A DNA stretch of 64,000 bases from an uncultured Syntrophaceae bacterium (GTDB lineage Bacteria; Desulfobacterota; BSN033; UBA1163): NCBI GenBank assembly GCA_964517975.1, contig CAZFDM010000242.1, positions 143 through 64,142 of the forward strand, written 5' to 3'. The notes under the pieces were generated by a model that was not told where the DNA came from, did not search any database, and saw only the letters and a list, made by a program, of their open reading frames with translations. The position numbers and the translations under genes were made by a program. Positions 15,074 through 52,200 of the stretch are shown piece after piece (position 1 is the stretch's first letter; every line of letters starts with the position of its first letter).

Positions 15074-15796
15074 TTATGTCTTAATGAATGTTAAAAGTTT
15101 CACTCCAGTAACCTCTTTGAAGGTGGCGCCCTCGCTGATGGAACGAATCAATCGATCTGGATCAATGATCTTTGAACCGCAAACCGCATTGATGCCGTAA
15201 TCAAAAAGAATCGGAGAGAGAGGAGAAGTGGGGCCGATCAAAATCACGTAGGCTTTTTTACAGAGTTTCAAAAGTCCTTCCAGGGTATGGTTAATAAAGG
15301 AGGTTCCTGTAATCCCAACCACATCACAGTCTGGCAAAATTCTATCTGCCTCAATGGCTGGCAAATCTCCTTCTCGGAGCCTTTGTTCAAGAACCCAAAG
15401 ATTTTTGATCTTTTCCCTCAATTTTGGAATCCAGGGAAAGTGTCCTACCACGGCTACTTTTCTCCCCTCTCCTTTCTCAAGAATGAGATCAAAGGCATTC
15501 TTCTCTATACACCTTGATTCATCAACATCTATCAGGGAATTAATGGTAGCCATCCCAATGGAAGCTTCGAGAAGACTATTGGATTTTGCATATTCCGCAA
15601 GTTCGAGGGCCGTCTTCTGGGTCAACCTTCCGACATCTCTAACCCCTTTTTCGTGAGAGGGGCCTTCCTCCCTAAACGTTGAGGAGATACCGCAATGTTT
15701 GCTCACCACAGCGGTCCAGAAGACGCAGGTATGGACACTCCTGACTGGAAAATCCATTCCTTTAAGGTTCTGGATAAGATCGTCGAGTATCCTCAT
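15074..15796 (-). CDS. DUF364/DUF4213-like Rossmann-fold protein
   Basis: 240 aa, weak resemblance only. Confidence 0.35.
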   Translation of the reverse strand: MRILDDLIQNLKGMDFPVRSVHTCVFWTAVVSKHCGISSTFREEGPSHEKGVRDVGRLTQKTALELAEYAKSNSLLEASIGMATINSLIDVDESRCIEKNAFDLILEKGEGRKVAVVGHFPWIPKLREKIKNLWVLEQRLREGDLPAIEADRILPDCDVVGITGTSFINHTLEGLLKLCKKAYVILIGPTSPLSPILFDYGINAVCGSKIIDPDRLIRSISEGATFKEVTGVKLLTFIKT

Positions 15797-26847: not shown

Positions 26848-27033
26848 TCAGGTGGATCCGGTTGAACATCCTTCAGAGAATTTGGCAGAGCCTGAGCTAA
26901 AAAGGGATAAAACCCTCTGGGGCCTTTCGGCTTGACACCTGGGACACCGAAGATGACTGCTTTCTTCGTTCATCTTTTGCAATATTTCGAATCTTTCCCC
27001 ACATTTTTGACATTCATACTCATAGATTGGCAT
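26848..27033 (-). CDS. FmdB-family zinc-ribbon protein
   Basis: MPIYEYECQKCG...CPRC. Confidence 0.65.
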   Translation of the reverse strand: MPIYEYECQKCGERFEILQKMNEESSHLRCPRCQAERPQRVLSLFSSGSAKFSEGCSTGST

Positions 27034-27381: not shown

Positions 27382-27855
27382 TCACTGAACACCCTTTAAC
27401 TTTTTCTCCCTTTTACCATAGACTTTTGAAAAATCCGTCCCTTTTATCCATCCAATCCTGACGTTCGTTTTTGAATCAATTTCTGGCAGATAGGGTTTGA
27501 TATCAATGAGAGGTGTCCCTTCCAATGCATCTAACCCTTTTACCTTCAATTTATTTCCATCTCTATCAATCAATTCAACGACAGAAAAGCCCAAAGCGTT
27601 TGGTCTATTTGGGGACCGGGTGGCAAACACACCATGTTGCTCAGAATCCCAGGGGGTCTTAACCAATAGATCAAAGTCTTTAGACTGGTGCAACCAATAT
27701 AGGATAATTAAATGGGAAAACCCATCGATATCCTTTAAACCCTCTGCATATTGTTCTGATACTTCAATCCAGCAAATTTCCTCTTCCCCTTGAGGTGGAC
27801 ATTCCTTTTTATTTTTATAGGGCGAATGGATGATTCCAATGGGTCTGAAATTCAT
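27382..27855 (-). CDS. TsaA/YaeB (TrmO) family tRNA methyltransferase
   Basis: IGIIHSPY...ATRSPNRPN...DIKPY pattern. Confidence 0.75.
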   Translation of the reverse strand: MNFRPIGIIHSPYKNKKECPPQGEEEICWIEVSEQYAEGLKDIDGFSHLIILYWLHQSKDFDLLVKTPWDSEQHGVFATRSPNRPNALGFSVVELIDRDGNKLKVKGLDALEGTPLIDIKPYLPEIDSKTNVRIGWIKGTDFSKVYGKREKKLKGVQ

Positions 27856-27887: not shown

Positions 27888-28130
27888 TCAATCTCTTCTA
27901 CAACTGCCCCCTGTGGAACAGGGTGGGGTGGAACAACGTTCTTCTCTTCCGCAACAGGTACGTCCAGGGTCTCTCTTCTCACCCTTCAGGGAATGAGTGA
28001 CGGAAAGCATTTTTTCTAAATGCGAGCTTCCACACTGTTTACAGGTTAAGGTATCACCTTTCGAACTGATCCCCACTAAAAACTCAGAAATGGTGCCACA
28101 ATTGTTACAACGATATTCATAAATGGGCAT
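27888..28130 (-). CDS. FmdB-family zinc-ribbon protein (paralog)
   Basis: MPIYEYRCNNCG...CKQCG. Confidence 0.65.
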   Translation of the reverse strand: MPIYEYRCNNCGTISEFLVGISSKGDTLTCKQCGSSHLEKMLSVTHSLKGEKRDPGRTCCGREERCSTPPCSTGGSCRRD

Positions 28131-28540: not shown

Positions 28541-29263
28541 TTATCTCCTGAGTTCATGTCTCCCAGTTTTGACCTCAAAATACTTATCATTCGGGAGGTG
28601 GGCAAACACCGAAGCACCAATACACGGGACGACATATTTGATTGGCCACTCCGCCCCAATGATATTAAAAAATTCCAGACAAGAAGAGCATACACGCAAA
28701 CTATCCGCAATAGAGTATGGTGCTACTACCCCATTGAGGTTTACAAAAAATTTTGGTTCAAGGAAATTGGCATGATTTGCTGAATGGCTGGTAAAGAGTT
28801 TATTGAAATCAAAAGGTTCATCTGACCGACGGCGCTCAAACCAAGTCTGATAAAAATCCTTTTCTATTGCCTCAACATTTTCCCAAACACTTGGTTTCTT
28901 TTGTTGATATTTCTCTGATTTAATTAATTGAGTGATTTCTTCAGGAGATGGAAGCCGATCTGGTTTAAAATTTGACTCCGTAATAATGATCGGGTTTCCA
29001 ACATCTAAATATTCCAGAGATGTATTGCTGACAATTAGGGACTTCCCTGCCTTTTCGGATTCCCAGTACCAGGATGTTCTCCTTTTACAAAACCCATACC
29101 AGGCTGGAGGAGGTAAATACGTAACTTTCCATGAAGTTCTCAAAACTCGGCATGGAATCCGAGCTTCATCCTTCAGTTCAATCCCTTCCTTTTCACAACT
29201 TTTTTTGACCCTTTCCAGCTCTCCAGAATTCACCCAATAGCAAAATTTTTGGTAAGCCATCAT
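28541..29263 (-). CDS. Hypothetical protein
   Basis: 240-aa ORF, no recognisable family. Confidence 0.35.
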   Translation of the reverse strand: MMAYQKFCYWVNSGELERVKKSCEKEGIELKDEARIPCRVLRTSWKVTYLPPPAWYGFCKRRTSWYWESEKAGKSLIVSNTSLEYLDVGNPIIITESNFKPDRLPSPEEITQLIKSEKYQQKKPSVWENVEAIEKDFYQTWFERRRSDEPFDFNKLFTSHSANHANFLEPKFFVNLNGVVAPYSIADSLRVCSSCLEFFNIIGAEWPIKYVVPCIGASVFAHLPNDKYFEVKTGRHELRR

Positions 29264-29311
29264 CCCTCCATCGTGTCCGTGCCCGTTCTACGTGTCCGTC
29301 AAACTTATAAT

Positions 29312-30190
29312 CTATTGAGTTAAGACAGTTTCCATTTGTTCCCACATTCGCTGAATGATCCTTTGAACCTCATTACAGGGATAATCCATAACAGTCTTCC
29401 TATTTACCAGAGCCTCGACCACTTTAGGTTCGTAGGGGATTTTTCCGAGGAGTTGAGAGCCGTTCTTCTCACAATAGAAAGATATCTTATCAGAGTTTTC
29501 AAGGTTCAAATCGAATTTATTGATGCAGACCATCGAGGGAATTTTGAAATGATCGGAGAGTTTCAAGATTCTCTCCAGATCGTGGATTCCTGAAAGGGTG
29601 GGTTCGGTGACGGCTAAAACCACGTTGACCCCCGTTATGGATGCAGTGACAGGGCATCCGATGCCTGGGGGGCCATCAATCAGGATTAAATTTAGATTCT
29701 TCTCTTTTGCAATCTCTGTAGCCTGCTTTCTCACAACGGTCACGAGTTTTCCTGAGTTCTCTTCCCCAATCCCCAACCGTGCATGGACAAAGGGGCCATA
29801 AGGTGTTTCAGAGACAAACCAATCTCCTGAAAATGCCTCCTCCATCATAATGGCATTTTCGGGACAAACATGTAAACAAAACCCGCAGCCCTCACATGAG
29901 ATATAATTTACCACTCCGTTATCGATCGCATTAAAGCGGCAAACCTCTGTACAGATGCCGCATTGGGTACATTTATCTAAATCTACGTGAGGAGATCTTT
30001 TGCCAAAATATTTTTCCTGTTTCAGTACCCTGGGGCGGAGCAAAAGGTGGAGGTCAGCGGCATCCACATCGCAATCCACCATGACTTTATTTTTTGCTAA
30101 AGCTGCAAAGGCAGCGGCAATGGTGGTTTTCCCTGTTCCACCCTTCCCACTCACGATGGCCAATTGTTTAATCTCTTTGCTCATAACCAA
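29312..30190 (-). CDS. MinD/ParA-type P-loop ATPase with inserted 2x[4Fe-4S] ferredoxin domain
   Basis: GKGGTGKTT Walker A; two CxxCxxCxxxCP motifs. Confidence 0.8.
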   Translation of the reverse strand: MVMSKEIKQLAIVSGKGGTGKTTIAAAFAALAKNKVMVDCDVDAADLHLLLRPRVLKQEKYFGKRSPHVDLDKCTQCGICTEVCRFNAIDNGVVNYISCEGCGFCLHVCPENAIMMEEAFSGDWFVSETPYGPFVHARLGIGEENSGKLVTVVRKQATEIAKEKNLNLILIDGPPGIGCPVTASITGVNVVLAVTEPTLSGIHDLERILKLSDHFKIPSMVCINKFDLNLENSDKISFYCEKNGSQLLGKIPYEPKVVEALVNRKTVMDYPCNEVQRIIQRMWEQMETVLTQ

Positions 30191-30212
30191 GTCTAAACAT
30201 TTGAGTTTAAGA

Positions 30213-30656
30213 TTATAAATTCTTTTTCTCTTTATAATTTGCGATAGCCTGGTGAAGCCCTCTTATCGCCAGCAAAGAACAATGAGCCTTCCTTGCGGGG
30301 ATTCCACCAGCCGCTTTGATCACATCATTATCTGTAAGTTGTAACGCCTCATCCAGTGTCTTCCCGATGGCCAGCTCCGTGGCAATACTGGAGGTGGAAA
30401 TGGCACCAGGACATCCCTGGGTTAAAAATTTAAAAGCAGATATCCTCCCGTCTTCCACTTTGAGATAAACCCTGATGAAATCTCCACAGGAAGGATCTCC
30501 AACTACTGCTACAGCGTCAGGGTTCTCAATTTCTCCCACATTCCTCGGGTGCAGGAAATGATCAATCAATGTATCGTTATAAACGAGATAACCCACATCT
30601 TCGTCCAAACTCTCTTCGGTGGGCAGATAGGGTTCATTTTCTTTGACTTGACTCAT
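30213..30656 (-). CDS. IscU/NifU-N-terminal-type Fe-S cluster scaffold
   Basis: GDPSCGD...GCPGA...HCSLL conserved Cys triad. Confidence 0.85.
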   Translation of the reverse strand: MSQVKENEPYLPTEESLDEDVGYLVYNDTLIDHFLHPRNVGEIENPDAVAVVGDPSCGDFIRVYLKVEDGRISAFKFLTQGCPGAISTSSIATELAIGKTLDEALQLTDNDVIKAAGGIPARKAHCSLLAIRGLHQAIANYKEKKNL

Positions 30657-31488
30657 AGAATTCCTCCACCTTTTTAAAGAGACTTAAAAATTGAGGAATA
30701 TAGGAAGAATTTTCAACAACAATGGGAATCCCCTTTGAATACGACTCCGCTATTTGCCGATCCATTGGAATCTCCATGAGGATGGGAATATGTTTCGATT
30801 GGCAATAATCCCAGACCTCCCGATCTCCAACATTCGCCTTATTAATAACCACTCCCTTTGGAATTCCTAACTTCTCCAGCATCCCCACTGCCAACTCCAG
30901 GTCATTCAGCCCAAAAATTGTTGGTTCGGTAACAAGAATGCAAAAGTCACTTCCCTTTACCGTTTCAATGACCGGACAAGCTGTTCCTGGAGGGGCATCA
31001 AGAATAACGATTTTGTCCCGCTGAATCTTTTCTTTAACCTTTCGAATCAGTGGAGATGCCATAGGTTCTCCCACATTAAGAACTCCATTAACAAAAGGAA
31101 TCCCATCTGAACTTCCTTCCTGGACAATCCCAATTTCCTTCTCCACTTCAAAAATAGCCTTTTCAGGGCATAGATAAGAACAGGCCCCACAACCGTGACA
31201 GAGCTCATCAAAGACCAATACAGTTTTTAGAATGACAGCAATTGCATGATATTCACAGACCTGAGCACATCTGCTACAGGAAGAGCACCTTGTTTCATCA
31301 ATTCGGGGAACTGGAATTCCCATGGAGGTAACCTGGTGGATGGTGGGGGATAGAAACAGGTGGGAATTCGGTTCCTCCACATCGCAGTCAATCAATTGGA
31401 CAGTCCCTTTGGGGAGCGAAAGGGCTAAATTAACAGCGATAGTGGTCTTTCCAGTCCCCCCTTTTCCGCTTGCTATGGAAATGATCAT
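30634..31488 (-). CDS. MinD/ParA-type P-loop ATPase with 4Fe-4S ferredoxin insert (paralog)
   Basis: GKGGTGKTT; CSSCSRCAQVCE and CHGCGACSYLCP. Confidence 0.8.
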   Translation of the reverse strand: MIISIASGKGGTGKTTIAVNLALSLPKGTVQLIDCDVEEPNSHLFLSPTIHQVTSMGIPVPRIDETRCSSCSRCAQVCEYHAIAVILKTVLVFDELCHGCGACSYLCPEKAIFEVEKEIGIVQEGSSDGIPFVNGVLNVGEPMASPLIRKVKEKIQRDKIVILDAPPGTACPVIETVKGSDFCILVTEPTIFGLNDLELAVGMLEKLGIPKGVVINKANVGDREVWDYCQSKHIPILMEIPMDRQIAESYSKGIPIVVENSSYIPQFLSLFKKVEEFYESSQRK

Positions 31489-31521
31489 GGTCTTTATAGG
31501 TTTCTCTCAAGTAGAAATTTC

Positions 31522-32484
31522 TTAATTGATTTTGACATTCTCGTAATAGCAACGATGCTCATATATTCGGTACCGGATTGCCCCTGTTTTTATAAGATGA
31601 CCTAAGTGTTTCACAACCTCATCCATATGGAGTCCAAGAGCCTTAGAAATATCTTCCGTTGTGCAGGGTCTCCTTCTAATCAAATTAAGGATCTCTGTGT
31701 CCTTTACGGAATTAAATTCCTCTCCCAGAGGGGCGGCAAATTCAGTAATAATCTCTGCTTTATCTCCAAGTTTTTCCCCTATCTCTTCAAGTTGAGTGGT
31801 CGTTAAGGGATAAGCAAATTCCTCAGCAGGAGGCCTGATGGGTGTGTTCAATTGAACCCTATCGGGCTGGATCCTCTCGATGACCTTCTTGAGTCTATCA
31901 ATCTCTTCTCCTTCATCATTGATTCCCCTGCAAAAAACCACCTCAAGCCATATCTGACCTCGATACTCTTTTCGAAATTGAATTAGACCCGATATGATTT
32001 CGCTTATTTTTAACGATGGATGTGGCCTATTGATATGTTCAAAAACGGTTGGAGTAATCGCATCCAGAGAAGGAAGAACAACATCCGCCTCAACCAAATC
32101 TTTTCTGACTTCTTCAAAAGAGAGTAAAGATCCATTCGTTAGAACCGCCAAAGGAATGGCAGTCAAATGCTTGATGGTGTGGATGATCTCTCCAATATTT
32201 TGATTGAGCGTGGGCTCCCCTGACCCGGAAAGCGTAATATAATCTGGCTTCTTTTCTGAGGAGGATAAAGTGAGATCCAGTTCCCTCTGGACTTCTTCAG
32301 TTGATACATAAGATTTTCGAAGGGTTGTTTTAAAAGTGGTCCTTTCCAGATCACAATAGATACAATCAAAGGTGCAGGTCTTATATGGGACAAGATCAAC
32401 TCCCAAAGACCTTCCCAGCCTTCTTGAGGGGACAGGGCCAAAGATATATTTTTGATCAGTCAGTTTTTTACCCATGCCTATCAA
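31522..32484 (-). CDS. Radical SAM protein
   Basis: CTFDCIYC (CxxxCxxC) motif, 320 aa. Confidence 0.8.
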   Translation of the reverse strand: MIGMGKKLTDQKYIFGPVPSRRLGRSLGVDLVPYKTCTFDCIYCDLERTTFKTTLRKSYVSTEEVQRELDLTLSSSEKKPDYITLSGSGEPTLNQNIGEIIHTIKHLTAIPLAVLTNGSLLSFEEVRKDLVEADVVLPSLDAITPTVFEHINRPHPSLKISEIISGLIQFRKEYRGQIWLEVVFCRGINDEGEEIDRLKKVIERIQPDRVQLNTPIRPPAEEFAYPLTTTQLEEIGEKLGDKAEIITEFAAPLGEEFNSVKDTEILNLIRRRPCTTEDISKALGLHMDEVVKHLGHLIKTGAIRYRIYEHRCYYENVKIN

Positions 32485-32699
32485 TGCTCGGTTTTCTCAA
32501 ATTCTTGAAGCAATCTCTTCTGATCGACACCAAACAGAATACAAGCCATCCCGAGTGTCTGGATTTTAAAGCCTGCTCTTTTCAGGCAATGCCCCCCAAA
32601 ATATCTTTCCATGACCTTAGACATCTGGGGATATTGCCTTAGAATACCCCCAATCAATTTATTTTCTAAAGAGGAACCCTTAAACGAAAACGATGTCAT
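32481..32699 (-). CDS. DUF1858-like small protein
   Basis: 72 aa, weak resemblance. Confidence 0.4.
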   Translation of the reverse strand: MTSFSFKGSSLENKLIGGILRQYPQMSKVMERYFGGHCLKRAGFKIQTLGMACILFGVDQKRLLQEFEKTEH

Positions 32700-33148
32700 T
32701 TCTCCGCCCCTTGATTAACCATTCTTTTCATGATCCTATATTTTCCTTCTGCACTTGCCACCCTCTTCCCATCCACCAAAGCCTTCCCTTCTAAGAGGAA
32801 CATTTCATGGATTTGGTCAACAATCCTCGCTTCTAACTTCACAACTGTTCCTGTTCGAATGGGAGTGGAATACTTGATCGACAACCTTCCCGTGAGGGCA
32901 GGGATATCCTTCATTAAGAGACAGTGGGTCATCGCAGAATCCAACAGGGTTGCGATGATTCCTCCGTGAATGATGCCTGAATAGCCTTCATACTTCGGGT
33001 CTGCAAAGAAACTTCCGAAGACAGCCCCATCTTCATGTTTGTAAAACTTGAGACCTAAACCCATTCCATCATTTGAGCCACAGGCAAAACAATTCCTATG
33101 GAGATTGGTTTCTACTTCCTCTTTTTCAACGATCAACATTTCATTCAT
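32696..33148 (-). CDS. PaaI-family hotdog-fold thioesterase
   Basis: HGGIIATLLDSAM motif. Confidence 0.75.
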   Translation of the reverse strand: MNEMLIVEKEEVETNLHRNCFACGSNDGMGLGLKFYKHEDGAVFGSFFADPKYEGYSGIIHGGIIATLLDSAMTHCLLMKDIPALTGRLSIKYSTPIRTGTVVKLEARIVDQIHEMFLLEGKALVDGKRVASAEGKYRIMKRMVNQGAEK

Positions 33149-33194
33149 GGAATCCCTAATTTTCTAAACCAGATCCGCTTTCCTATCACATAAG

Positions 33195-33425
33195 CTATTT
33201 TCTCGTCATTGTTGCACCACATTTGGGGCACTTCATAGAGTAGCAGGGTATTCCAGCTTCATGATCAGCAGTCGTTCCGCATTTAGGACAAATGCATTCT
33301 CCACCAGGACCTGCGCCAGCTCTTGAGCCTCCCATCCTTCCCCTACGGGAGCCACCCATTCCTGCACCTCTACCTGTCCCTGGACCACTCCCCCAGGGAG
33401 GACCTGTTCTATCACCTCTTGGCAT
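33195..33425 (-). CDS. DUF5320 family protein
   Basis: [17 protein letters not shown]-terminal signature, Gly/Arg-rich, C-terminal Cys pairs. Confidence 0.55.
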
Positions 33426-33522
33426 ATTAATGACCTCCTTTTTTCATGTAAGGGCTTATGGGGATTGGATGTCCAATCCCCATGGGCTCCATCATCGTCC
33501 CCATGCAACCACTTGCACTTTA

Positions 33523-33786
33523 TTACCACCAACGACGGAACCCGCGCCCGCCACCAAATACCCTTCCACGACCTCCACCCCACGGAAGCCCTCCACGGCC
33601 TGCCCCAAAGACAGGACCATAAAACGGCCGACCATAGAATGGGTACATGCCAGTAGGTGGATAATAAGGTGCCCGGAAGCCATAACCATAAGGTCTGTAT
33701 GGAATCGCACAGAAACCTCTACCTCCACCCGTCATTGGACCCAGACCCATTGGTCCTGTTCCATCAAATCCTGGCATAAAAAACAC
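33523..33786 (-). CDS. DUF5320 family protein
   Basis: MPGFDGTGPMGLGPMTGGGRGFCA signature; Gly/Pro/Tyr/Arg-rich. Confidence 0.55.
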   Translation of the reverse strand: MFFMPGFDGTGPMGLGPMTGGGRGFCAIPYRPYGYGFRAPYYPPTGMYPFYGRPFYGPVFGAGRGGLPWGGGRGRVFGGGRGFRRWW

Positions 33787-33806
33787 CTCCTTTCCATTGG
33801 GGGATA

Positions 33807-33830
33807 CGTGATTCGTGACTCGTGATTCGT
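33807..33830 (-). promoter_or_regulatory. Tandem heptad CACGNNN repeats in the 5' leader of a DUF5320 gene
   Basis: Minus strand GAATCACGAGTCACGAATCACG immediately upstream of the AGGAGG RBS. More GTGA/TCAC half-sites up to 33870, including a partial Rex-like TTGTGAA-N4-.CAC. Confidence 0.35.
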
Positions 33831-33870
33831 TAAATGCATTCTGAGTGACGATTCACAACCAAAGTCACAA

Positions 33871-34119
33871 TTATTTTTTCAACTCTTCGAGCCTCTTTTC
33901 AATCTGATTCAACTCTTCTCGAAGGAAATTGGCTTCTTCTTCAAGAAACCGAATCTCATCTTCCTTTGTAGGAGGTCCCCAAGGAGGAACAGGTGCTCCA
34001 TAGCCCCATGGATTACACCGCCACCCTCTACCAAACCCATAAGGGTAACGTCTCCATCCCATAGGTCCCATACCATATGGCATAATCATCCCTCCTTTCA
34101 ATGCCGTGATTCGTGTCAC
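33871..34119 (-). CDS. DUF5320 family protein with C-terminal coiled-coil
   Basis: PYGMGPMGWRR...EEEANFLREELNQIEKRLEELKK. Confidence 0.55.
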   Translation of the reverse strand: MTRITALKGGMIMPYGMGPMGWRRYPYGFGRGWRCNPWGYGAPVPPWGPPTKEDEIRFLEEEANFLREELNQIEKRLEELKK

Positions 34120-34132
34120 GTGTTTCGTGTCC
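34105..34132 (-). promoter_or_regulatory. Second copy of the CACGNNN heptad repeats in a DUF5320 5' leader
   Basis: Minus strand GACACGAAACACGTGACACGAATCACGG upstream of the GGAGGG RBS. Confidence 0.35.
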
Positions 34133-34137
34133 GACTT

Positions 34138-34536
34138 TCAAGATCCTCTACGACCACCCATGCCCCGGCCACCTCCCATGCCAAAGTGGGGAGGAACCGT
34201 AGCACCACTGGCTTCCTTCAGAGTTCCTGATTTGAAGGCTTCGACCACCTCTTTTATTGTCCCACCAGGAACGAGGTAGACTTTGATTCCGGATGCCGAA
34301 AGAGCAGAAGCAGCATTTGGTCCAAGATTGCCAGTAATCAAAGCCTTTGCCCCTTTCTGCACAATAAGTTGAGCGGCCTGAACCCCAGCCCCTCCCATGG
34401 CCATCAAGCCTTCATTCTCGAGGGCTTCAAATTCCATTGTCTCTGGGTCAACAAAAATAAAATACTGGCATCTTCCAAATCGTGGGTCGATCGGGGAATT
34501 AAGATCTTTCCCTGTAGAACTGACAGCAATCTTCAT
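34138..34536 (-). CDS. NifX/NafY-like dinitrogenase FeMo-cofactor-binding family protein with Gly/Arg-rich tail
   Basis: MKIAVSS...DPRFGRCQYF pattern; start ATG overlaps the upstream stop. Confidence 0.7.
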   Translation of the reverse strand: MKIAVSSTGKDLNSPIDPRFGRCQYFIFVDPETMEFEALENEGLMAMGGAGVQAAQLIVQKGAKALITGNLGPNAASALSASGIKVYLVPGGTIKEVVEAFKSGTLKEASGATVPPHFGMGGGRGMGGRRGS

Positions 34537-34922
34537 CGTCCCTCCTCTCCGCATCCGTGCTCATGTCCATGGTGCTCACAAGCAACCACTCCTTGAATTT
34601 CTCCTTTAAGATAAGCCTCGACAACGTCCTTCACTTTTCCTTGGACTCCTGTCGCCACATCAATCCCAAATTGCGTGAAAAAGTCTATAGCCCTTGGTCC
34701 CATTCCACCCGCAATCATCACATTCGCCTTTTTTGAATGGATAAACTGGGGAATGACTCCAGGTTGATGGTTTGGATAGTAAGGGTTCTTTACCACCTCA
34801 AAACTAAGAATTCGGTCTCCCTCTACATTTACAAAGGTATAGAAGGGACACCTACCAAAATGGGCACTGAGGTATCCCTCAAGGCCTGAACCATCTTCAG
34901 AAGCCAATGCAATTCTCTTCAT
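34533..34922 (-). CDS. NifX/NafY-like family protein with His/Cys-rich C-terminus
   Basis: MKRIALASEDGSGLEGYLSAHFGRCPFY; C-terminal CEHHGHEHGCGEEG. Confidence 0.7.
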   Translation of the reverse strand: MKRIALASEDGSGLEGYLSAHFGRCPFYTFVNVEGDRILSFEVVKNPYYPNHQPGVIPQFIHSKKANVMIAGGMGPRAIDFFTQFGIDVATGVQGKVKDVVEAYLKGEIQGVVACEHHGHEHGCGEEGR

Positions 34923-35863
34923 CTCTTTACCTCCCCTTTGAAATGATATGGAAATTTCTCTCTTTCCATTTGTTTCTCTATTTCCTTAAGACCTACATAT
35001 TGTTTACAACGTTGTGCTATCTCCCTAAATGCTTTGGTCACCTCAGATTCAGGATGGGCCATCACAAAGGGCATTCCTCTGTCACAATCGTTGACCATTT
35101 CAGGGTCAATGGGAATTCTTCCCAAGAACGGAACCCTCATATCGTGTGCTGCTTTTTCACCGCCACCTTTCTTAAAAAGAGAAATCTCTTTATGACAGTA
35201 AGGGCAAATCAATCCGCTCATATTCTCCACAATACCAATTACAGGAATACCAAGTATCCCACTAAATGTGACAGCCTTTCTCGAATCAAGTAGCGCCACA
35301 TCCTGAGGAGTAGTTACAATGATGGAGCCATCCACATTCTTAATGAGATGGGCTACGCTGAGCGGTTCATCCCCTGTCCCTGGAGGAAGATCGATGATAA
35401 GGAAATCAAGATATCCCCACTCCACTTCTCCCAGAAATTGACTGATAGCACTATGTTTAAGCGGACCTCTCCAGATCACTGGATGATCCCTATCCCCAAT
35501 AAAAAAGGCCATAGAGATAACTTTTAAATTTGGGAAAACATCTACCGGGGTCATCCCTTTATTCGACCCTTCGACCATTCTGGATTCGATTCCCAACATT
35601 TTAGGGATATTGGGGCCATGAATATCAGCATCAAGAAGTCCAACTTCAAAACCATCTAATGCAAGACTAACGGCTATATTCGTAGCCACCGTGCTTTTCC
35701 CCACTCCTCCTTTCCCACTCATCACCATCATCCGATATTTAATGTAAGAAAGTTTTGACTTCAGTCTTTCCTGAGTATGGGCTTCTTTTTCTTGCTGACT
35801 GCAAGAACTGGACTGATTACAAGTTTCACAGATTGTATCTTTGTCACATTTTTCTTTAGTCAT
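34919..35863 (-). CDS. Mrp/NBP35/ApbC-family Fe-S cluster carrier ATPase with Cys-rich N-terminus
   Basis: GKGGVGKST Walker A, CPYC motif, N-terminal CDKDTICETCNQSSSC. Confidence 0.85.
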   Translation of the reverse strand: MTKEKCDKDTICETCNQSSSCSQQEKEAHTQERLKSKLSYIKYRMMVMSGKGGVGKSTVATNIAVSLALDGFEVGLLDADIHGPNIPKMLGIESRMVEGSNKGMTPVDVFPNLKVISMAFFIGDRDHPVIWRGPLKHSAISQFLGEVEWGYLDFLIIDLPPGTGDEPLSVAHLIKNVDGSIIVTTPQDVALLDSRKAVTFSGILGIPVIGIVENMSGLICPYCHKEISLFKKGGGEKAAHDMRVPFLGRIPIDPEMVNDCDRGMPFVMAHPESEVTKAFREIAQRCKQYVGLKEIEKQMEREKFPYHFKGEVKR

Positions 35864-36247
35864 CTATATTCTCCTCCTTCCACGAAATCCCCTTCTCCAA
35901 CCACAAAGACCTCTCCCTCCCCTCTTCTCACAGCAAAAGCCCGAACGGAGTCTTCCTCTCATGAAGAGATCAAAAGCCACCTCAGCTTCTCCCATCACAT
36001 CATGAACGACGTCAACTCCTTTATTCCCAAGTTGACGCAAAGAGAATTCATCGATTCCCCCACAGATGACCTTATCCACCCCATTTGAAGTGATCTGATC
36101 CAAACGCTGGGTAAGATTTAGATTAGCCGTTGGTATCTTCTCCTTACCTATGACCTCGCCATTCTTTACCTCGATGACCCACACCTCTGGGGAGAAATCA
36201 AACCGGGGTGAAATACGATCTCCAAAAATAGAAATAGCAACCTTCAT
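35864..36247 (-). CDS. NifX/NafY-like family protein with Arg/Gly-rich tail
   Basis: MKVAISIFGDRISPRFDFSPEVWVIEV. Confidence 0.65.
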   Translation of the reverse strand: MKVAISIFGDRISPRFDFSPEVWVIEVKNGEVIGKEKIPTANLNLTQRLDQITSNGVDKVICGGIDEFSLRQLGNKGVDVVHDVMGEAEVAFDLFMRGRLRSGFCCEKRGGRGLCGWRRGFRGRRRI

Positions 36248-36262
36248 TCTATTATCAAGATT

Positions 36263-36278
36263 AGCAAAATGAATGCCA
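36263..36278 (-). promoter_or_regulatory. Candidate sigma-54 (-24/-12) promoter facing the nifX-like/mrp/DUF5320 gene block
   Basis: Minus strand TGGCAT-N5-TTGCT with exact GG-N10-GC spacing. Only about 16 nt from the ATG, so either a near-leaderless transcript or the start codon is misplaced. Confidence 0.4.
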
Positions 36279-36374
36279 GGGAGTAAAAAGGGGGATAAAT
36301 GATAAAAAATTAAGTAGTTTTGAGAAGTTCCATTGTTATGGAATTAAAAGGGATGCTGGATTGGATTAAAAAGA

Positions 36375-36422
36375 AATGTTTCAATTTGAAACATATGAAA
36401 CATATAGTTTCATTATTGAAAC
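36375..36422. promoter_or_regulatory. Cluster of TGTTTCA/TGAAACA palindromes (candidate upstream activator sites)
   Basis: atgtttcaa-tt-tgaaacat (perfect 9-bp IR) followed by atgaaac-atata-gtttcat and a further tgaaact; lies between the sigma-54 activator gene and the sigma-54 promoter. Confidence 0.4.
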
Positions 36423-36425
36423 TAT

Positions 36426-37763
36426 TTACATTAATCCATATCTTTTTATCTTCCTCCAAAGGGTTGCCCTACTTATACCCAATTCATGGGCTGTTTTTAT
36501 CCGATTGCCTTTGTTTTTTTCTAAAATCTTTTTCACTATTTCTGCCTCAGCCTTTTTAAAAGGAGGGGGTTCTTCTAACGGAGTGGTGGAATCCTTGTTC
36601 TCTTCCTTCATTATCACTTCCTTAGGCAAGCAGTCCACATCAATCTTATTCCCATCACATAGGACGAAGGCATGTTCTATGATGTTTTCGAGTTCCCTGA
36701 CATTTCCAGGAAAGTCATATTTCAAAAGCAATCGGAAAGCCTGATCGGATAACCCTGTGATCTGTTTTCCCATTTTGGCATTAAACTTTTGAATGAATGC
36801 ATCGATCAGCAAAGGAATATCTTCCCTTCTTTGTGAAAGGGGAGGAAGTTCGATTTTTACCACATTAAGGCGATAGAAGAGGTCATCTCTGAATTTTCCT
36901 TCATTAACCAGCCTTGAGAGGTCTTTATTTGTTGCTGCAATGATTCGAACATCAGTTTTTCTTGGACTGTTTGAACCCAAGGGTTCATACTCTTTCTCCT
37001 GGAGAACACGAAGGAGTTTAACTTGAAGCGCAGGGGACATATCCCCCACCTCATCCAAAAAGATTGTCCCTCCATTGGCAATGGCAAATCTTCCAGGCTT
37101 ATCTTTCTTAGCATCGGTAAAGGCTCCCTTAACGTATCCAAAAAGCTCGGATTCGAGCAAGGTGTCGGGAAGGGCACCACAATTGACCTTGATAAAAGGC
37201 TTATCTTTCCTACGACTCAGATGATGAATGGCCTTTGCAAAAAGTTCTTTGCCCGTCCCACTGGCCCCTTGAATTAAGACAGAGCTATCGCTCTCCGCTA
37301 CATTGGGAAGAATGTTAAAAATATCATGAATCAAGTGATTTTTGCTGATGATATCACCAAGTGTATATTTTTGAGAGAGTTCCTTTTTAAGCTCTTCAAT
37401 CGTAGAGAGGTCTCTAAAGGTTTCCACTCCTCCAATAATCTGCCCTTTCTCATTCTTTAATACGGCAGTGCTAATACTGATGGGGACTTTTTGGCCTCCT
37501 TTCTTTAAGATGGTAGCAGGAAGGTTGATAATCTCCTTCTTTGTTTTGAGGGTTTCTTTCAGGGCACACCGGGTTTGGCAAATATCGGCTCTGAAGACAT
37601 CAAAGCAGTATCGGCCGACAGCCTCCCTACTGGAGAACCCAGTGATTTCTTCTCCGGCTTTATTTATAAAAGTAATCTTGCCCTCATTGTCGGTGGTGAA
37701 AACCCCATCTGCAATGCTGTTAAGGATGACATTAAAAAATTGATTAGGCTTCTTTTTTTCCAT
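36426..37763 (-). CDS. Sigma-54-dependent transcriptional activator with PAS sensor, AAA+ and Fis-type HTH domains
   Basis: PAS N-terminus, GESGTGKE Walker A, C-terminal HTH (ELGISRATLWRKIKRYG). Confidence 0.9.
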   Translation of the reverse strand: MEKKKPNQFFNVILNSIADGVFTTDNEGKITFINKAGEEITGFSSREAVGRYCFDVFRADICQTRCALKETLKTKKEIINLPATILKKGGQKVPISISTAVLKNEKGQIIGGVETFRDLSTIEELKKELSQKYTLGDIISKNHLIHDIFNILPNVAESDSSVLIQGASGTGKELFAKAIHHLSRRKDKPFIKVNCGALPDTLLESELFGYVKGAFTDAKKDKPGRFAIANGGTIFLDEVGDMSPALQVKLLRVLQEKEYEPLGSNSPRKTDVRIIAATNKDLSRLVNEGKFRDDLFYRLNVVKIELPPLSQRREDIPLLIDAFIQKFNAKMGKQITGLSDQAFRLLLKYDFPGNVRELENIIEHAFVLCDGNKIDVDCLPKEVIMKEENKDSTTPLEEPPPFKKAEAEIVKKILEKNKGNRIKTAHELGISRATLWRKIKRYGLM

Positions 37764-47176: not shown

Positions 47177-48214
47177 TTAGTTAAGTTTTCCATATTTTTG
47201 GGCAGCCTTTATCAAGGTTTCCATATTTTCCTTTGGTACGACGGGCCAGAGGTCACATCCTGGCCAGATGGCATTGACACCTCCCTCCACTGCCTCTTTC
47301 ACTGCCCTTTCTACATCTTGGGGCTTACCTTGGGTTAACACACCAAAGGGATCGATTTCTCCAAAGATCAATACCTCTGGACCCAATTTTTCCCTACTCT
47401 CGGCCACTCTGTTCTTCTTCTCCACACTGATCGCATCTGCTCCGCATAGGGCCATCTGGTCGATGATTGCATTGGTATCGCCACAGATATGCAGGATCTT
47501 AGGGGATTCGATTTCATCAAAGATTCGTTTCAGATGGGGTCGGACAAGGGACTCAAACATGCGCGGACTCAGAATATCAGGTCCAGCACCCATCTCTCGG
47601 ACAGTGATATAGTCCGCTCCGGCCTTTTTATAAATCTTTACAATTTGAACAAGAACTTCCGCCAGTTGACCAAGTTTTTGACTCACCAACTCCCTCTTTT
47701 TAAAGGCTGATTTCGCAAGGTTTGAAAGATCGACCAACTGTCCTGCCAAGGTATAAGGTCCCAGAACCCAAGAACCAATGACTATCTGATCGCCAACCTC
47801 CTCCTTCAACAAGCGAATCGCTTCTGTGACTATTGGAAGCCTTCCAGCCTTCTCCAAATCAGGTGGGATTTGGATCTCGAGCCCTTCTATTGTCTCTGAA
47901 GGATGCTCCATAATGGTCGGATAGAGGATATCGGATTGGTGGGCATAGTAATTGACTTTACTCCCCAGGACTTCGGCCTCAACACCCATATCGAAGGGAA
48001 CGACTGCACAGGGAAACCCAAACAGTTGATAGGTTGAGGCAGCCATCTTTGCCATCTTTTGGGCATCCATATGAATCTCTGGAAATTTCCACCCATATTT
48101 TTCCAGGCCATGAATGGTAATATTTCCCATGCCACTGAAGAGGGGAATCATATCTAACTTTTCTTTCCCTAAGAGTTTAAGGACCTGCTGTCTTGGACTT
48201 AAATCGGTTGCCAT
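47177..48214 (-). CDS. Uroporphyrinogen-decarboxylase-like methyltransferase (MtaA/CmuA family)
   Basis: URO-D-fold pattern; C-terminal WPGCDLWPVVPKENMETLIKAA zinc-ligand block; start taken at MATDLSPRQQ. Confidence 0.7.
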   Translation of the reverse strand: MATDLSPRQQVLKLLGKEKLDMIPLFSGMGNITIHGLEKYGWKFPEIHMDAQKMAKMAASTYQLFGFPCAVVPFDMGVEAEVLGSKVNYYAHQSDILYPTIMEHPSETIEGLEIQIPPDLEKAGRLPIVTEAIRLLKEEVGDQIVIGSWVLGPYTLAGQLVDLSNLAKSAFKKRELVSQKLGQLAEVLVQIVKIYKKAGADYITVREMGAGPDILSPRMFESLVRPHLKRIFDEIESPKILHICGDTNAIIDQMALCGADAISVEKKNRVAESREKLGPEVLIFGEIDPFGVLTQGKPQDVERAVKEAVEGGVNAIWPGCDLWPVVPKENMETLIKAAQKYGKLN

Positions 48215-48215
48215 G

Positions 48216-49163
48216 TCATCTTTCTCCTTTTTCTTTTTCAAATTGTTTAACCACATCAGGGAAGAGAAGGTTTAACGGGTGATTCTCATGGGGTAAAACC
48301 CCCGCTTCCCCATAAGCTAGGGCGGCCATCATGCTGCTTGCTGCAGCCACGGCTGAAAAAACCCTAGTTGTACCTGTTAAAGGCCCATAGAAAAGGAAAT
48401 CGCTTGCCAGTGCTGAGATGGCATGGACCCCTGCATCGATCGCTGGGAATTTATTTCTCTCCTTCTCACCTGCTGACTTCCTCCACATATAAGTCCCATT
48501 GGAAGGAGCGAATCCAACTGGAAGACCAAATTCCTTTTTGATAAGATAATTAGCCATTAAAGAAAAGGTAGTGGCAGGTAGATTCATCACAGCAGTATCA
48601 ACGAGTATGCTCTCAAAATTCCCTTTCTCCACAAGAGGAAGCAAGGCCTTCAGGGACTTGACCCTACCAGTGGGCGTCTTATCCTCTATATCGAAGACCT
48701 GAACGACCACATGCTTGATGCCAAGTTCTTTGAGTTCAGAGACCTGACCATTAATATCCTCATCCCAGGGGGTAATGCTATTATAAAGAGCCCTGTTTTG
48801 TAACCCTTTCTTTGCAATATAGCGGGCTCCTGCCAGCCTTGTCTTCTGCTGCCAGATATCAATGGCAAAGGGTATCTCCGTAACGCTAACAAAAAAATCG
48901 ATATAATTTTTTATCTCCTCCTCAGAATTGGCCACCAATGCAATTAGACCAGGAATCCCTGTCTGACGAGAAATCTCTTCCAGTTCATGGATTCGTTCTT
49001 CAGCCACCTTTCGGTTAAACTTTCCAGATTTTCTGTCTTCTAAGATGAGATCTCCTTTTTGAAACATATTTCCAATCAAAAGCGGAGGGTTCTCTCCCAA
49101 CTGACCACCCACTTTTGCTCCACCAATATTGAATACCTTTTGCTCCAAAGAATATCTTAACAT
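48216..49163 (-). CDS. MtrH-like pterin-binding methyltransferase (corrinoid:tetrahydrofolate type)
   Basis: 315-aa TIM-barrel-like MtrH/DHPS family resemblance. Confidence 0.55.
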   Translation of the reverse strand: MLRYSLEQKVFNIGGAKVGGQLGENPPLLIGNMFQKGDLILEDRKSGKFNRKVAEERIHELEEISRQTGIPGLIALVANSEEEIKNYIDFFVSVTEIPFAIDIWQQKTRLAGARYIAKKGLQNRALYNSITPWDEDINGQVSELKELGIKHVVVQVFDIEDKTPTGRVKSLKALLPLVEKGNFESILVDTAVMNLPATTFSLMANYLIKKEFGLPVGFAPSNGTYMWRKSAGEKERNKFPAIDAGVHAISALASDFLFYGPLTGTTRVFSAVAAASSMMAALAYGEAGVLPHENHPLNLLFPDVVKQFEKEKGER

Positions 49164-49224
49164 TAAAAAACCCCTTTCTTCCCATCCTCCCTTCCCCCTT
49201 CAAAAGAGGAGGGAGGATGTATCT

Positions 49225-52200
49225 TTATTTCTTTTCAGGAAGCAGATGCTCGAGATGTGGAAACTTATCCTTCATATGAGGAATCCACATGGCCTGGGCA
49301 AAAATTTTATCGAATCCTGGCTCCAGGGTGAGTTCTAAATATTCTACCCTCCGTGCAATCCAATCCGCCTCTTTCCTCTTGTCCACATTGAGAAGGGCCA
49401 TACGGGCTCCATCGCCAGCCGCATTTCCTACAGAATAGACATTCTTCGGATCACAGTCAGGGAAAAGCCCTAAAAGTGCGGCTGATGTCTTATCAATATA
49501 ACTTCCAAATGCCCCTGCTAAGATGACTTTGTCTATCTTTTCTACACCCAGAGCCCGCATCATAATCTTGGCCCCTGCATACATGGCTCCTTTGGCCAGT
49601 TGAATCGCCCTGATATCATCCTGACATATCACAATATCCTGCCCAATCGATGTTTCGTTGGCCCAGGCAATGACAAATTCGGGTTGACCATTGACCTCAC
49701 GATATCGAGGAGTGTTAAGATTCTTATTAAAACGGCCCGTCTTATCGATAATCCCTGCAAGGAAAAGTTGAGGGACGATATCAATAATCCCTGAACCACA
49801 GATGCCTTTCGCGCCCACCTCTTCTAATTCTGTATTCCACCCCTCCTTATCGATCACCTTGAAGCGGACTTCTTTGGTCTCAGGATCGATCTCAATCTTC
49901 TCAATCGCCCCAGGAGCAGCCCGCATACCGAATCTAATCTCCGCTCCCTCAAAGGCAGGACCTGTGGCACAGGAAGAGGAGATAAGTTTTTGTCTATTCC
50001 CAAGGACAAGTTCTCCATTGGTGCCGATGTCAATGATCAATTCAATGCTATCCTGGTTGTAAGGTTCCTCAGCAATCAGGACCCCCACATTGTCTGCTCC
50101 GACAAAACCTGCCTCAATGGGAAGCACATGGACATAGGCCCCTGGTGCAATTTTAATCCCAATATCCCTTGATATCTTTGCCTCTGGCCTTCCCTTCTCA
50201 GCATAAACACTGCAGTTAAGACATCTCTTTGATTCTTCGATGGCAATCTCCACCCGATCGGCAAACCCCAATTCGACTTCCTCAAAACCCGTTCTTTTTT
50301 CAGGCTCAATAAGAAATAGGGGTTTACGCTCCTCTTTTTCAATTCCCTCCTTTGGAACGTCTTCAATCTTCTTCTTCTTGGCAGGCCTCCCTTTGACCAG
50401 ATCCACTCCTGAGAGATAGAGTTCAATTGAGATGGCCCCCTCTTGCCCAGCACTTACAGCAGAAATCACATCGGCTGGACCTAAGACCGCATCCCCTCCA
50501 GCAAATACCCCATCTATATTTGTCTTCAACGTAATTGGATCTACTAAAATAGTCCCAGATTTCGTGTACTGAAGTTCATTGACAAACATCCTTTGGTCTA
50601 TAGCCTGACCTACAGCAATGATGAGTTGGTCCACATCGATATGAAAATCTGACCCTTGGATGGGGATAGGAGTGGGTCGACCACTTTCATCGGGCTCTCC
50701 AAGTTCCATCCGGATACATTGAATCCCGTTGAGTTTCCCATCATTGGCCAGGGCCATGATCGGAGATGCCAGGAAATGAAACTTCACCCCTTCCTTTTCA
50801 GCCTCTGAAATCTCGGTTCTGATGGCAGGCATCTCATTTTGGGAACGACGATAGATAATCAAAACTTCCTCTGCTCCAAGACGTCTGGCCACTCGGGCAG
50901 CGTCGATGGCAGCGTTACCGCCACCCACTACAGCCACCCTTCTACCCACCTCAACCTTCTCCCCAGAATTTACCTTTTTCAAAAATTCAAGCCCATGGAT
51001 CACTCCTTTTGACTCTTCATTGGGAATACCCATCCTCTGGCTCTTCCAAGCGCCGGTTGCTAAAAAGATTGCCTTATATCCCTGATCGAAAACCTCTTTG
51101 AGGCTTTGCACAGGATGATTGGTCTTTATCTCCACACCCAACTCTTCTATGTAACCAATCTCCTCGTCCAGAACCTCCTTCGGAAGCCTGTAGTCGGGGA
51201 TGCCATACCGAAGCATTCCTCCAGGCTTAGGAGCGGACTCAAAGACTGTAACAGGATAGCCCCTTCTCACGAGTTCATAGGCGCAGGAGAGCCCTGCTGG
51301 TCCTGAACCGATAATGGCAATTCTTTCTTCCTTCGTCTTCTCAATGGGCGCTGCCCTCTTTCTACCATTTCTTAATTCATGGTCTGCTACAAACCGATGA
51401 AGTGCTCGAATGGAAAGAGGCTGATCTACCTTTCCTCTCTCGCATTCAACCTCGCATGGATGAGTGCAGACACGACCGCATACTCCAGGGAAAGGCATTG
51501 CCCTTCTAATCTCTTCAAGGGCTTCCTCAAACTTTCCCTGAGCAATGTAATATAAAAAGTCTTGGCCACTGATTCCTGCAGGGCAGGCGACTTGACAGGG
51601 GGGGTATCCTCCAATTTCAACCGTTACTGCTTCAGGAAGTAGTTTGAGTCCCCAATCACGGGCTTTAATATCTAAGGAATGATGGAGTGAGGGGGCGAAA
51701 GGTGCACGTCCAATATTTCGAGGATCGATGTTGAGAAAGAGATGGTGCATACAGGTATTGCCAACAATGGTCATATCCAGAATGTCTGTCCTTTTTATTC
51801 CCGCAATAGCAGTGGCCTCCTCAACAATTCCATTCAACCCATCCAGAATGGCCTGGTTCATATGCTCAAGACCATCAGGGTTTGTCATGGTATAACTGAT
51901 TCGGGACATTACATCCTCGCCATAAATGACTTGAGGATTCATCATGGAGGCAGTAGCTACCAACTTCCCATTGGTGAGATCGCAGAGATAACCGGCAACT
52001 GTTGTCGTTCCTACATCCACAGCCAAACCAAAAGCCCTTTTAACATTCCCAGGTTCAACTTTGATCACCTCTCGGTCATGCCAGACAGAAACCGTAACCT
52101 TCCAATCGCCTTGACGCACAACCTCCTGGAGGGTGACCAAAACCTGATAGTCGATGGTTAGGTTTTTCAGTCCATATTGCTTTTCAAGTTCTGTCGTCAA

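Follow-up and report, generated by a model that had tools for sequence, protein, structure and literature searches.

In the 64-kb stretch of DNA from an uncultured Syntrophaceae bacterium analysed here (the window), a block of genes on the minus strand at 29312-37763 is best read as an extended, one-operon ORP ("orange protein") system, which would serve the redox-gated, ATP-using storage, assembly and delivery of iron sulfide and iron-sulfur (Fe-S) clusters. We put the probability of this reading at roughly 60%. That the core of the block is the ORP system as found in Desulfovibrio vulgaris (DVU2103-2109; PMC6345978, PMC3897727, PMC8359166) is very probable, judged by an indirect comparison via motifs, profiles and structures, and the storage-and-delivery function, which is suggested by gene content, has about an even chance of being correct. 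Strict anaerobes need iron and sulfur for very large Fe-S proteomes, and the ways in which they obtain, keep and allot them form the background to this analysis; the ORP system has been studied for 15 years without an agreed function. As described below, the ORP genes belong to a larger module, present in at least about 15 phyla, with a scaffold, a carrier and proteins resembling IssA, the thioferrate storage protein of Pyrococcus furiosus (PMC5524996). The ORP core was already known; the apparent novelty lies in how large and widespread the module is and in the connection between DUF5320 proteins and IssA tails. An earlier description of the window, made from its letters only (the sequence-only reading), had listed 15 minus-strand open reading frames (ORFs) in this block, and Pfam and NCBIfam scans bear out these closely packed ORFs, their coordinates and their domains apart from corrections to some families. 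The same description had called the system uncharacterised, which does not hold: the activator, the promoter layout, the pair of MinD-type ATPases, Mrp and the NifX-like proteins are those of the ORP system, studied since 2011. The features are listed here in transcription order.

36426-37763, minus strand: OrpR-type sigma-54 enhancer-binding protein with PAS, AAA+ and Fis-type helix-turn-helix (HTH) domains (Pfam)
36378-36422: putative upstream activating sequence (UAS) of overlapping palindromes, GTTTCA-N4-TGAAAC, TGAAAC-N5-GTTTCA and GTTTCA-N3-TGAAAC
36263-36278, minus strand: sigma-54 -24/-12 element TGGCAT-N5-TTGCT (TGGCATTCATTTTGCT)
35864-36247, minus strand: NifX1, NifX-fold (Di-Nase, PF02579) protein with a cationic Arg/Gly/Cys tail (Pfam, 27.6 bits)
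34919-35863, minus strand: Fe-S carrier ATPase of the Mrp/NBP35 type, corresponding to the P-loop half of a split MrpORP (Orp9)
34533-34922, minus strand: NifX2, NifX-fold protein with a CEHHGHEHGC tail, ending in CEHHGHEHGCGEEGR; the Di-Nase half of the split MrpORP
34138-34536, minus strand: NifX3, ORP/Orp8-like NifX-fold protein with a GMGGGRGMGGRRGS tail
33871-34083, minus strand: DUF5320a, a Trp/Gly/Arg/Pro-rich segment and a C-terminal coiled coil (PF17253, 44.1 bits)
33523-33777, minus strand: DUF5320b, a MPGFDGTGPMGLGPMTGGGRGFC motif followed by Gly/Arg/aromatic repeats (PF17253, 27.8 bits)
33195-33425, minus strand: DUF5320c, MPRGDxTGP and a Gly/Arg linker, then a Cys6-His zinc-ribbon/rubredoxin-like knuckle
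32696-33148, minus strand: lineage-specific hotdog-fold thioesterase-like protein (4HBT, 32.9 bits)
32481-32699, minus strand: lineage-specific DUF1858-like small protein with two Cys
31522-32475, minus strand: radical S-adenosylmethionine (SAM) enzyme, CxxxCxxC at residues 34-41, C-terminal winged helix
30634-31488, minus strand: MinD1, MinD-type ATPase with an inserted 2x[4Fe-4S] ferredoxin domain (MinD-Fer4), Orp3/Orp4-like
30213-30656, minus strand: IscU/NifU-N scaffold with Cys 57, 82 and 126 (NifU_N 125 bits; TIGR03419 149 bits)
29312-30184, minus strand: MinD2, MinD-type ATPase with 2x[4Fe-4S], a paralogue of MinD1
28541-29263, minus strand: conserved 240-aa protein of a family without a name, directly 3' of MinD2

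The identification of the core as ORP rests on the OrpR motif, the sigma-54 element with its palindromes, the MinD-Fer4 pair, the matches to the MrpORP model and a structural match to ORP itself. First, the activator carries the motif C53-x-D55-x6-C62-x3-C66, the spacing of C52/E54/C61/C65 in D. vulgaris OrpR, where these residues are the proposed ligands of a redox-sensing [4Fe-4S] cluster. OrpR of D. vulgaris is a characterised [4Fe-4S] redox sensor which is active only at low potential, and OrpR is restricted to delta-proteobacteria, where sulfate reducers and some syntrophs have it (PMC8359166). The C-x-[DE]-x6-C-x3-C motif was found in 15 of 15 full-length OrpR-like ORFs of related loci as well as in the window protein, and it was absent from both unrelated enhancer-binding proteins in these loci (n = 2). 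The activator reached no NCBIfam equivalog cut-off, and NCBIfam has no OrpR-specific model. At two related loci the position of the activator is taken by a 122-aa PAS protein without AAA+, HTH or the Cys motif (L001:2450-2818 and L002:482-850); the sigma-54 element is retained at both, with a leader of about 100 nt.

Second, the regulatory region resembles that of D. vulgaris in layout, with a -24/-12 promoter and a putative palindromic UAS about 100-145 bp upstream. TGGCATTCATTTTGCT is the sole match to TGGYAY-N5-TTGCW in the 64 kb, against 0.21 expected, and at 15 of 16 related loci a sigma-54 element stands 5' of the first NifX-like gene, mostly at a distance of 12-29 nt from its ATG. Likewise, the three TGAAAC/GTTTCA palindromes are confined to 36378-36422 and occur nowhere else in the window (0.04 and 0.00 expected). 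In size class (16-17 bp) and in position they agree with the OrpR site of D. vulgaris, the spacer between UAS and promoter is 70% A+T, and in relatives the palindromes again stand directly 3' of the orpR stop codon. Their half-sites co-vary symmetrically (GTTGCA/TGCAAC in L003, L010, L017, L045 and L077), as expected for the binding site of a dimeric HTH protein. The sigma-54 promoter and TGAAACA palindromes that the sequence-only reading had pointed out are thus present, unique in the window and conserved in relatives. The -12 element stops 15 nt before the ATG of NifX1 (36247-36278) with no Shine-Dalgarno sequence between, and a spacing of 12-19 nt recurs in 10 of 15 related loci, which implies that the first cistron on the sigma-54 transcript would be leaderless or nearly so, unlike that of D. 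vulgaris.

Third, both systems have two MinD-type ATPases with 2x[4Fe-4S]; those of D. vulgaris (Orp3 and Orp4) form a complex with the ORP protein. Each ATPase of the window contains two CxxCxxCxxxC motifs, the paralogues match each other at 140 bits, and MinD1 has the deviant Walker A sequence GKGGTGKT. The original proposal for Desulfovibrio ORP, septum positioning or cell-shape control by the MinD-like ATPases, is weighed at this point. Morphology defects on inactivation of OrpR and a polar location of MrpORP have been reported (PMC8359166, PMC6345978, PMC3897727), and among solved structures the ATPase domain is closest to archaeal MinD proteins (E about 1e-13). However, every conserved neighbour across about 15 phyla handles metal or Fe-S (IscU, Mrp, NifX-fold proteins, radical SAM and Cys-rich ribbons), neither MinC nor MinE nor any Fts gene is linked to the cluster, and the ATPases contain ferredoxin inserts. 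The shape defects could follow from Fe-S deficiency, and the ORP authors themselves grade the role as "still unclear". We therefore regard a device for cell division as improbable.

Fourth, the Mrp carrier matches the MrpORP model NF041136 at 363 bits over profile positions 2-257 of 365 (ApbC, 242 bits), and NifX2, whose gene overlaps that of Mrp by 4 nt, matches positions 266-364 of the same profile at 78 bits. The fused protein of D. vulgaris is thus split into two overlapping genes; the Mrp-NifX2 fusion is absent from the window, where only its parts are present, and the fused form occurs in locus L068 as in D. vulgaris. The Cys-rich N-terminus ascribed to Mrp by the sequence-only reading is confirmed, with Cys 6, 12, 15 and 21 followed by CPYC and by the Walker A sequence GKGGVGKS; four N-terminal Cys and a CXXC are also features of the D. 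vulgaris carrier. Mrp thereby resembles the Nbp35/Cfd1 and ApbC/Mrp carriers: its Walker A is of the deviant kind, CXXC is the motif for a bridging cluster, and the N-terminal Cys cluster is like that of Nbp35. It differs from them in that its operon is a dedicated one, shared with the MinD-Fer4 proteins as probable clients and with storage-type proteins. Fifth, as in D. vulgaris, there are several single-domain NifX-fold proteins, one of them close to ORP. The matches of NifX3 in the Protein Data Bank (PDB) are D. gigas ORP (2WFB, E = 7.7e-20, residues 7-117), TM1290 and MTH1175; those of NifX2 are PH0822 and TM1816, and NifX1 matches MJ0327 weakly. Two differences concern the whole system: the D. 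vulgaris genes form two divergent operons flanking the activator, whereas in the window all genes lie 3' of the activator in one operon, and the window adds eight genes, namely three DUF5320 genes and those for the thioesterase, the DUF1858-like protein, radical SAM, IscU and the 240-aa protein.

The closeness of NifX3 to the Mo-Cu-binding D. gigas ORP also suits another explanation, in which thiomolybdate, thiotungstate or Mo-Cu-S would be what the system processes, either to detoxify it or to supply a cofactor, echoing the [S2MoS2CuS2MoS2] cluster of purified ORP. GMGR repeats make the tails rich in Met, and motifs of this kind are suited to soft metals such as Cu(I). Relatives contain YqeB, and the best NCBIfam matches of the radical SAM protein, all weak, are MoaA and a tungsten-cofactor maturase. 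Against this, those matches lie far under the cut-offs (55 vs 284 bits), no molybdate transporter or Mo-cofactor gene was found in the cluster, and IscU and Mrp point to Fe-S. We consider this explanation slightly less probable still than cell division.

The link of the NifX-fold proteins to iron sulfide comes from IssA. According to PMC5524996, P. furiosus IssA combines a NifX-fold (IPR003731) domain with a disordered tail, Pro-rich at first and then cationic, aromatic and Gly-rich (isoelectric point, pI, 10.7); the proposal is that this tail envelops the anionic thioferrate which forms on the NifX-fold domain. When we applied the published criteria for IssA (Vaccaro et al.: IPR003731/PF02579, pI at least 9, fewer than 5 Cys and at least 20% Gly in the last 40 residues) and for IssX (pI at least 8, fewer than 10 Cys and at least 10% Gly in the last 40 residues), NifX1 qualified as IssA (pI 9.55, 4 Cys, 20% Gly), NifX3 as IssX only (pI 8.82, 1 Cys, 25% Gly), and NifX2 as neither (pI 6.14). 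The Arg/Gly tail of NifX1 had been missed by the sequence-only reading. Expression tied to sulfidic, reducing conditions is a further likeness to IssA.

The tails in cis are short (about 15-25 residues), which differs from IssA as described there, and most of the tail-like sequence is in separate DUF5320 proteins. DUF5320b consists of 31% Gly, 14% Pro, 12% Arg and 24% aromatic residues and has a pI of 10.67; in composition and pI it matches the IssA tail as published. It has 859 homologues and is predicted to be disordered, as an AlphaFold2 model from an 11-sequence alignment gave a mean confidence (pLDDT) of 48.9 with no secondary structure. For DUF5320a the start was set by a Shine-Dalgarno sequence and a conserved MP start. 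The gathering score of PF17253 is 27, which DUF5320a and DUF5320b pass and DUF5320c (19.4 bits) does not; the three tandem DUF5320 proteins reported earlier are therefore two members above the Pfam cut-off and one protein that joins the DUF5320 N-terminal motif to a Cys6-His zinc ribbon. This third family has 840 homologues, none with a name or Pfam domain, and 1873 representatives at E<=1e-3. Its pattern is MPRGDGTGP...GRMGGxRxGAGPxGxCxCPxCG...H...PCY...CPKCG (proteins P0241-P0508), with C44, C46, C49 and C61 invariant. In the AlphaFold2 model, residues 1-42 are disordered and residues 43-76 form the knuckle at a pLDDT of about 80, for which Foldseek returned zinc ribbons and rubredoxins only, none of them significant. 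Coiled coils and zinc ribbons such as those of some DUF5320 proteins are not described for IssA in the passages of PMC5524996 consulted. A literature search found DUF5320 mentioned only in unrelated contexts; DUF5320, and likewise the zinc-ribbon family of DUF5320c (about 1,900 cluster representatives), now gain a concrete, testable role.

Fusions are the strongest evidence for that role. In 7 of the 8 loci tested, one of them archaeal, a single protein has both PF02579 and PF17253 above threshold (Pfam), and in about one-third of the NifX3-like ORFs elsewhere the NifX domain is followed by (GMGR)n repeats, then by a Pro linker and finally by a coiled coil. The DUF5320c module is also fused to NifX (P0400, P0452), to DUF134 and to the putative FeS domain PF04060. 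The DUF5320 proteins thus look like detachable IssA-type tails supplied in trans, which favours a role in Fe-S handling over one in cell division. The remark in the sequence-only reading that RGG-like tails are unusual for bacteria is misplaced: such tails are a hallmark of IssA-type proteins (PMC5524996), and DUF5320 is found in at least 458 species-level loci, as confirmed by a genome scan.

For the genome scan, one genome per species was searched with a DUF5320 alignment. We retained 80 DUF5320-anchored loci from about 15 phyla, including Thermodesulfobacteriota, Chloroflexota, Omnitrophota, Clostridia, Thermotogota, Elusimicrobiota, Bipolaricaulota, Actinomycetota, Armatimonadota, Latescibacterota and methanogenic archaea. 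The window proteins were then searched against the six-frame ORFs of the retained loci, and co-occurrence was counted in the 57 loci of at least 10 kb, as follows.

NifX-fold genes: 93% of the loci
MinD-Fer4 genes: 81%, with exactly two copies in 43/57
IscU: 63%
Zinc-ribbon DUF5320c: 60%
Mrp: 53%
Radical SAM homologue: 37%

In nearly all of these loci the co-occurring genes are on the DUF5320 strand. Outside Thermodesulfobacteriota the figures are similar, and OrpR, the hotdog protein, the DUF1858-like protein and the 240-aa protein are absent; in other phyla the homologous radical SAM core follows IscU. Close relatives of the window (L001-L003, L005, L007-L019) keep the same gene order from the activator to the 240-aa gene. 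The control for linkage was the remainder of the window, about 54 kb, in which no cluster family has a second copy; counts upstream versus downstream are useless as a background because gene order differs between phyla. Chance adjacency was rejected in view of the strong linkage and the lack of second copies. The genes are therefore linked across genomes, as the sequence-only reading had supposed, and its view of a real functional unit under sigma-54 control is upheld by synteny together with the conserved promoter. The co-directionality which it had stressed is real, since one strand is used throughout, but carries no weight, because 39 of 40 ORFs of at least 180 aa in the window are on the minus strand; GC skew is uniformly negative. 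In phyla that lack OrpR, the regulator position is often taken by a DUF134 HTH gene, 0.3-1.5 kb 5' of DUF5320; it was detected in 29 of 86 loci (including L018, L020, L040 and L047). Some of the DUF134 proteins are fused to the DUF5320c module, and a ligand-sensing regulator is therefore suggested.

The co-occurrence figures also bear on the idea that the three small DUF5320 proteins are substrates which the radical SAM enzyme would modify in the manner of a ribosomally synthesised and post-translationally modified peptide (RiPP). Three tandem small genes with a common "leader-like" N-terminal motif and conserved Cys would suit such a pathway, and the C-terminal winged helix of the enzyme could recognise peptides. 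However, radical SAM accompanies DUF5320 in 37% of loci against 93% for NifX, the enzyme has no SPASM domain or auxiliary-cluster Cys (6 Cys in total, 3 of them in CxxxCxxC), no protease or exporter is linked, and DUF5320 is found fused to NifX, DUF134 and FeS domains. On these grounds a RiPP system was rejected as the main explanation and is the least probable of those considered.

More attention is due to a dedicated role in the maturation or support of a complex Ni/Fe-S enzyme, notably Ni-CO dehydrogenase (CODH), in which the MinD ATPases would act like CooC and the NifX-fold proteins as precursor carriers. In seven related loci (L001, L002, L005, L011, L012, L017 and L035), CooS (TIGR01702, 623 bits) or CdhA and CdhB (1099 and 130 bits) lie inside the operon between DUF5320c and DUF1858 (L001:6971-8944, L012:10659-12632, L017:5124-7097, L011:6054-8960, L005:5721-8648, L035:1846-3843), beside ATPases of the MinD family. 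In 7-8 loci the radical SAM gene is flanked by a MetV-like gene and by the gene for YqeB, which acts in Mo-cofactor maturation (374 bits). Besides, cooS of D. vulgaris is DVU2098, five locus tags from orp3 (DVU2103; PMC3125180), and in Archaeoglobus fulgidus thiosulfate elicits a response of cdhAB-2 as well as of the orp-like genes (PMC4543118). On the other hand, a homologue search of the 64-kb window found no CODH, YqeB or MetV-like gene, and none of the 54 loci outside Thermodesulfobacteriota has a CODH within 10 kb, so the association is confined to one phylum. The slot is variable and holds the thioesterase in the window, and the top NCBIfam matches of the ATPases include no CooC model. 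CODH maturation is thus unlikely as the purpose of the system, although likelier than the other alternatives, and we take the association as a lead to a client.

The sequence-only reading had also invoked nitrogenase-type cofactor carriers and insertases (NifX/NafY, CooC). A radical SAM enzyme beside NifX-fold carriers and dimeric Fe-S ATPases of the SIMIBI class do recall NifB/NifX/NafY and NifH, but the ATPases are MinD-type proteins with ferredoxin inserts and not NifH, and no NifB model was among the 20 NCBIfam matches of the radical SAM protein. No nitrogenase domain was found among about 42 scanned window proteins, as already stated in that reading, and CODH is absent as well. The link is therefore one of analogy, and nitrogenase-type cofactor maturation was rejected for want of a NifB-model match and nitrogenase genes. 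Its broader view of an Fe-S or metal-cluster system is sound, since it fits both the synteny and the transfer of [4Fe-4S] from MrpORP to Orp3/Orp4, which co-purify with ORP (PMC6345978). It had further allowed for a known pathway with a known client: the pathway can now be named as ORP, but no physiological client is known.

Returning to the extended ORP system for iron-sulfide and Fe-S storage, assembly and delivery, the steps can be proposed as follows. The OrpR-type activator would bind the predicted GTTTCA-N4-TGAAAC palindromes, about 100-145 bp upstream of the -24/-12 promoter, and, as in D. vulgaris, a low redox potential would be required for the operon to be on, which is expected because the activator carries the [4Fe-4S]-ligating PAS motif. 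In D. vulgaris, OrpR turns orp on at low redox potential and expression drops when H2S is sparged out (PMC8359166), and the orp-like genes AF2380-2383 of Archaeoglobus are induced on thiosulfate (PMC4543118). The NifX-fold and DUF5320 proteins may hold a pool of anionic iron sulfide or metal sulfide, as IssA holds thioferrate, with the disordered, cationic DUF5320 proteins (Gly, Arg, Met and aromatic residues) as a tail in trans. According to PMC5524996, IssA is induced by S0 and its stored thioferrate can rebuild [4Fe-4S] ferredoxin. From this pool, IscU and Mrp would assemble [4Fe-4S] clusters and hand them on, and IscU would probably take its sulfur from sulfide rather than from cysteine, because no desulfurase is linked: a cysteine desulfurase gene lies within 10 kb in 1 of the 80 DUF5320-anchored loci, and the window has none. 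Finally, a MinD-Fer4 heterodimer may couple ATP hydrolysis and low-potential electrons to filling or emptying the store, or to placing clusters in client proteins. A wider version, in which free-standing IssA-type tails with NifX, MinD-Fer4, Mrp, IscU and radical SAM proteins would form a conserved bacterial and archaeal module that would keep iron sulfide in polymeric form and turn it into [4Fe-4S] clusters by means of ATP and low-potential electrons, and Desulfovibrio ORP would be its reduced form and not a cell-division device, is more tentative, and the odds are against it.

Several points weigh against the reading as an extended ORP system with this function. Native Desulfovibrio ORP binds a Mo-Cu-S cluster, not iron sulfide. 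The DUF5320 N-terminal motif MPxxDGTGPxGxGPxTGRG is strongly conserved, which hints at docking to a particular protein and not just at electrostatic attraction, and the DUF5320c module might serve as a sensor, given that it is also found fused to DUF134, a DNA-binding domain. Mrp scores below the MrpORP equivalog cut-off (363 against 450 bits), because the gene is split. The predicted OrpR sites are AT-rich (GTTTCA-N4-TGAAAC) and differ in sequence from the D. vulgaris site GGGCGYRTTTTGCGCCC, and the site for integration host factor (IHF) in D. vulgaris has no recognisable counterpart between the UAS and the promoter in a search for WATCARNNNNTTR with up to one mismatch. The comparison with DVU2103-2109 and with IssA (PF2025) is indirect, via motifs, models and published criteria.

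Among the remaining genes, the hotdog gene was found in Thermodesulfobacteriota loci only (0/35 elsewhere). Its earlier label PaaI is not warranted, since TIGR02286 gives 21 bits against a cut-off of 118.9, and the hotdog fold alone is supported. For the small two-Cys protein, DUF1858 (PF08984, 26.9 bits) is indeed the best Pfam match but lies under the cut-off of 32.2; TIGR03980, "hybrid cluster protein-associated redox disulfide domain", matches at 22 bits. The radical SAM protein has no related solved structure, and its orthologues in Thermodesulfobacteriota metagenome-assembled genomes are 75-98% identical. Judged by homologues, the window belongs to Thermodesulfobacteriota and is close to metagenome-assembled genomes of Syntrophaceae.

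The boundaries of the cluster can be adjusted. Its adjacent genes are separated by -23 to 97 nt, a search of these gaps gave no internal sigma-54 promoter (best match 8/11 positions), terminator-like sites within the cluster were not above chance, and an Rfam scan of the whole window gave no RNA family at gathering thresholds. The 3' end previously placed at 29312 is arbitrary, as the block continues into the 240-aa gene (28541-29263), whose product has no Pfam or NCBIfam match. This gene lies 3' of MinD2 in L001-L003, L008, L009, L012, L013, L016, L017 and L019; it is kept in Syntrophaceae-type relatives whose contigs extend that far and is missing in at least L010. Additional small genes follow on its 3' side. 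Just 3' of the cluster are TrmO/TsaA-like and FmdB-type zinc-ribbon genes (27382-27855, 27888-28130, 26848-27033), which recur in or beside the module in other phyla (L028, L030, L045, L046, L067); in L028 the TrmO-like gene lies between both MinD genes.

Minor elements were also seen between the genes. Heptad-spaced CACG repeats, 3-4 in each case, occur in the leaders of DUF5320a (34087-34137), DUF5320b (33778-33870) and the 240-aa gene (29264-29311), just 5' of strong Shine-Dalgarno sites. For example, one leader reads GACACGA AACACGT GACACGA ATCACGG, against a background of 0.13 CACG per 93 nt. The repeats are partly kept in L001, L003, L012 and L013 and may form an element that binds a protein or RNA. 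The spacer between DUF5320b and DUF5320c contains a perfect 10-bp hairpin, GGGGATTGGA-CA-TCCAATCCCC (about 33455-33480, minus strand), which is kept in L013 and L016. Elsewhere in the window there are a FeoB ferrous-iron transporter (7911-9824), a DUF364/DUF4213 "heavy-metal chelation" protein (15074-15796) and a corrinoid methyltransferase set (47177-52674) with a 1149-aa RACo-oxidoreductase fusion, a MtrH-like gene and a URO-D-like gene.

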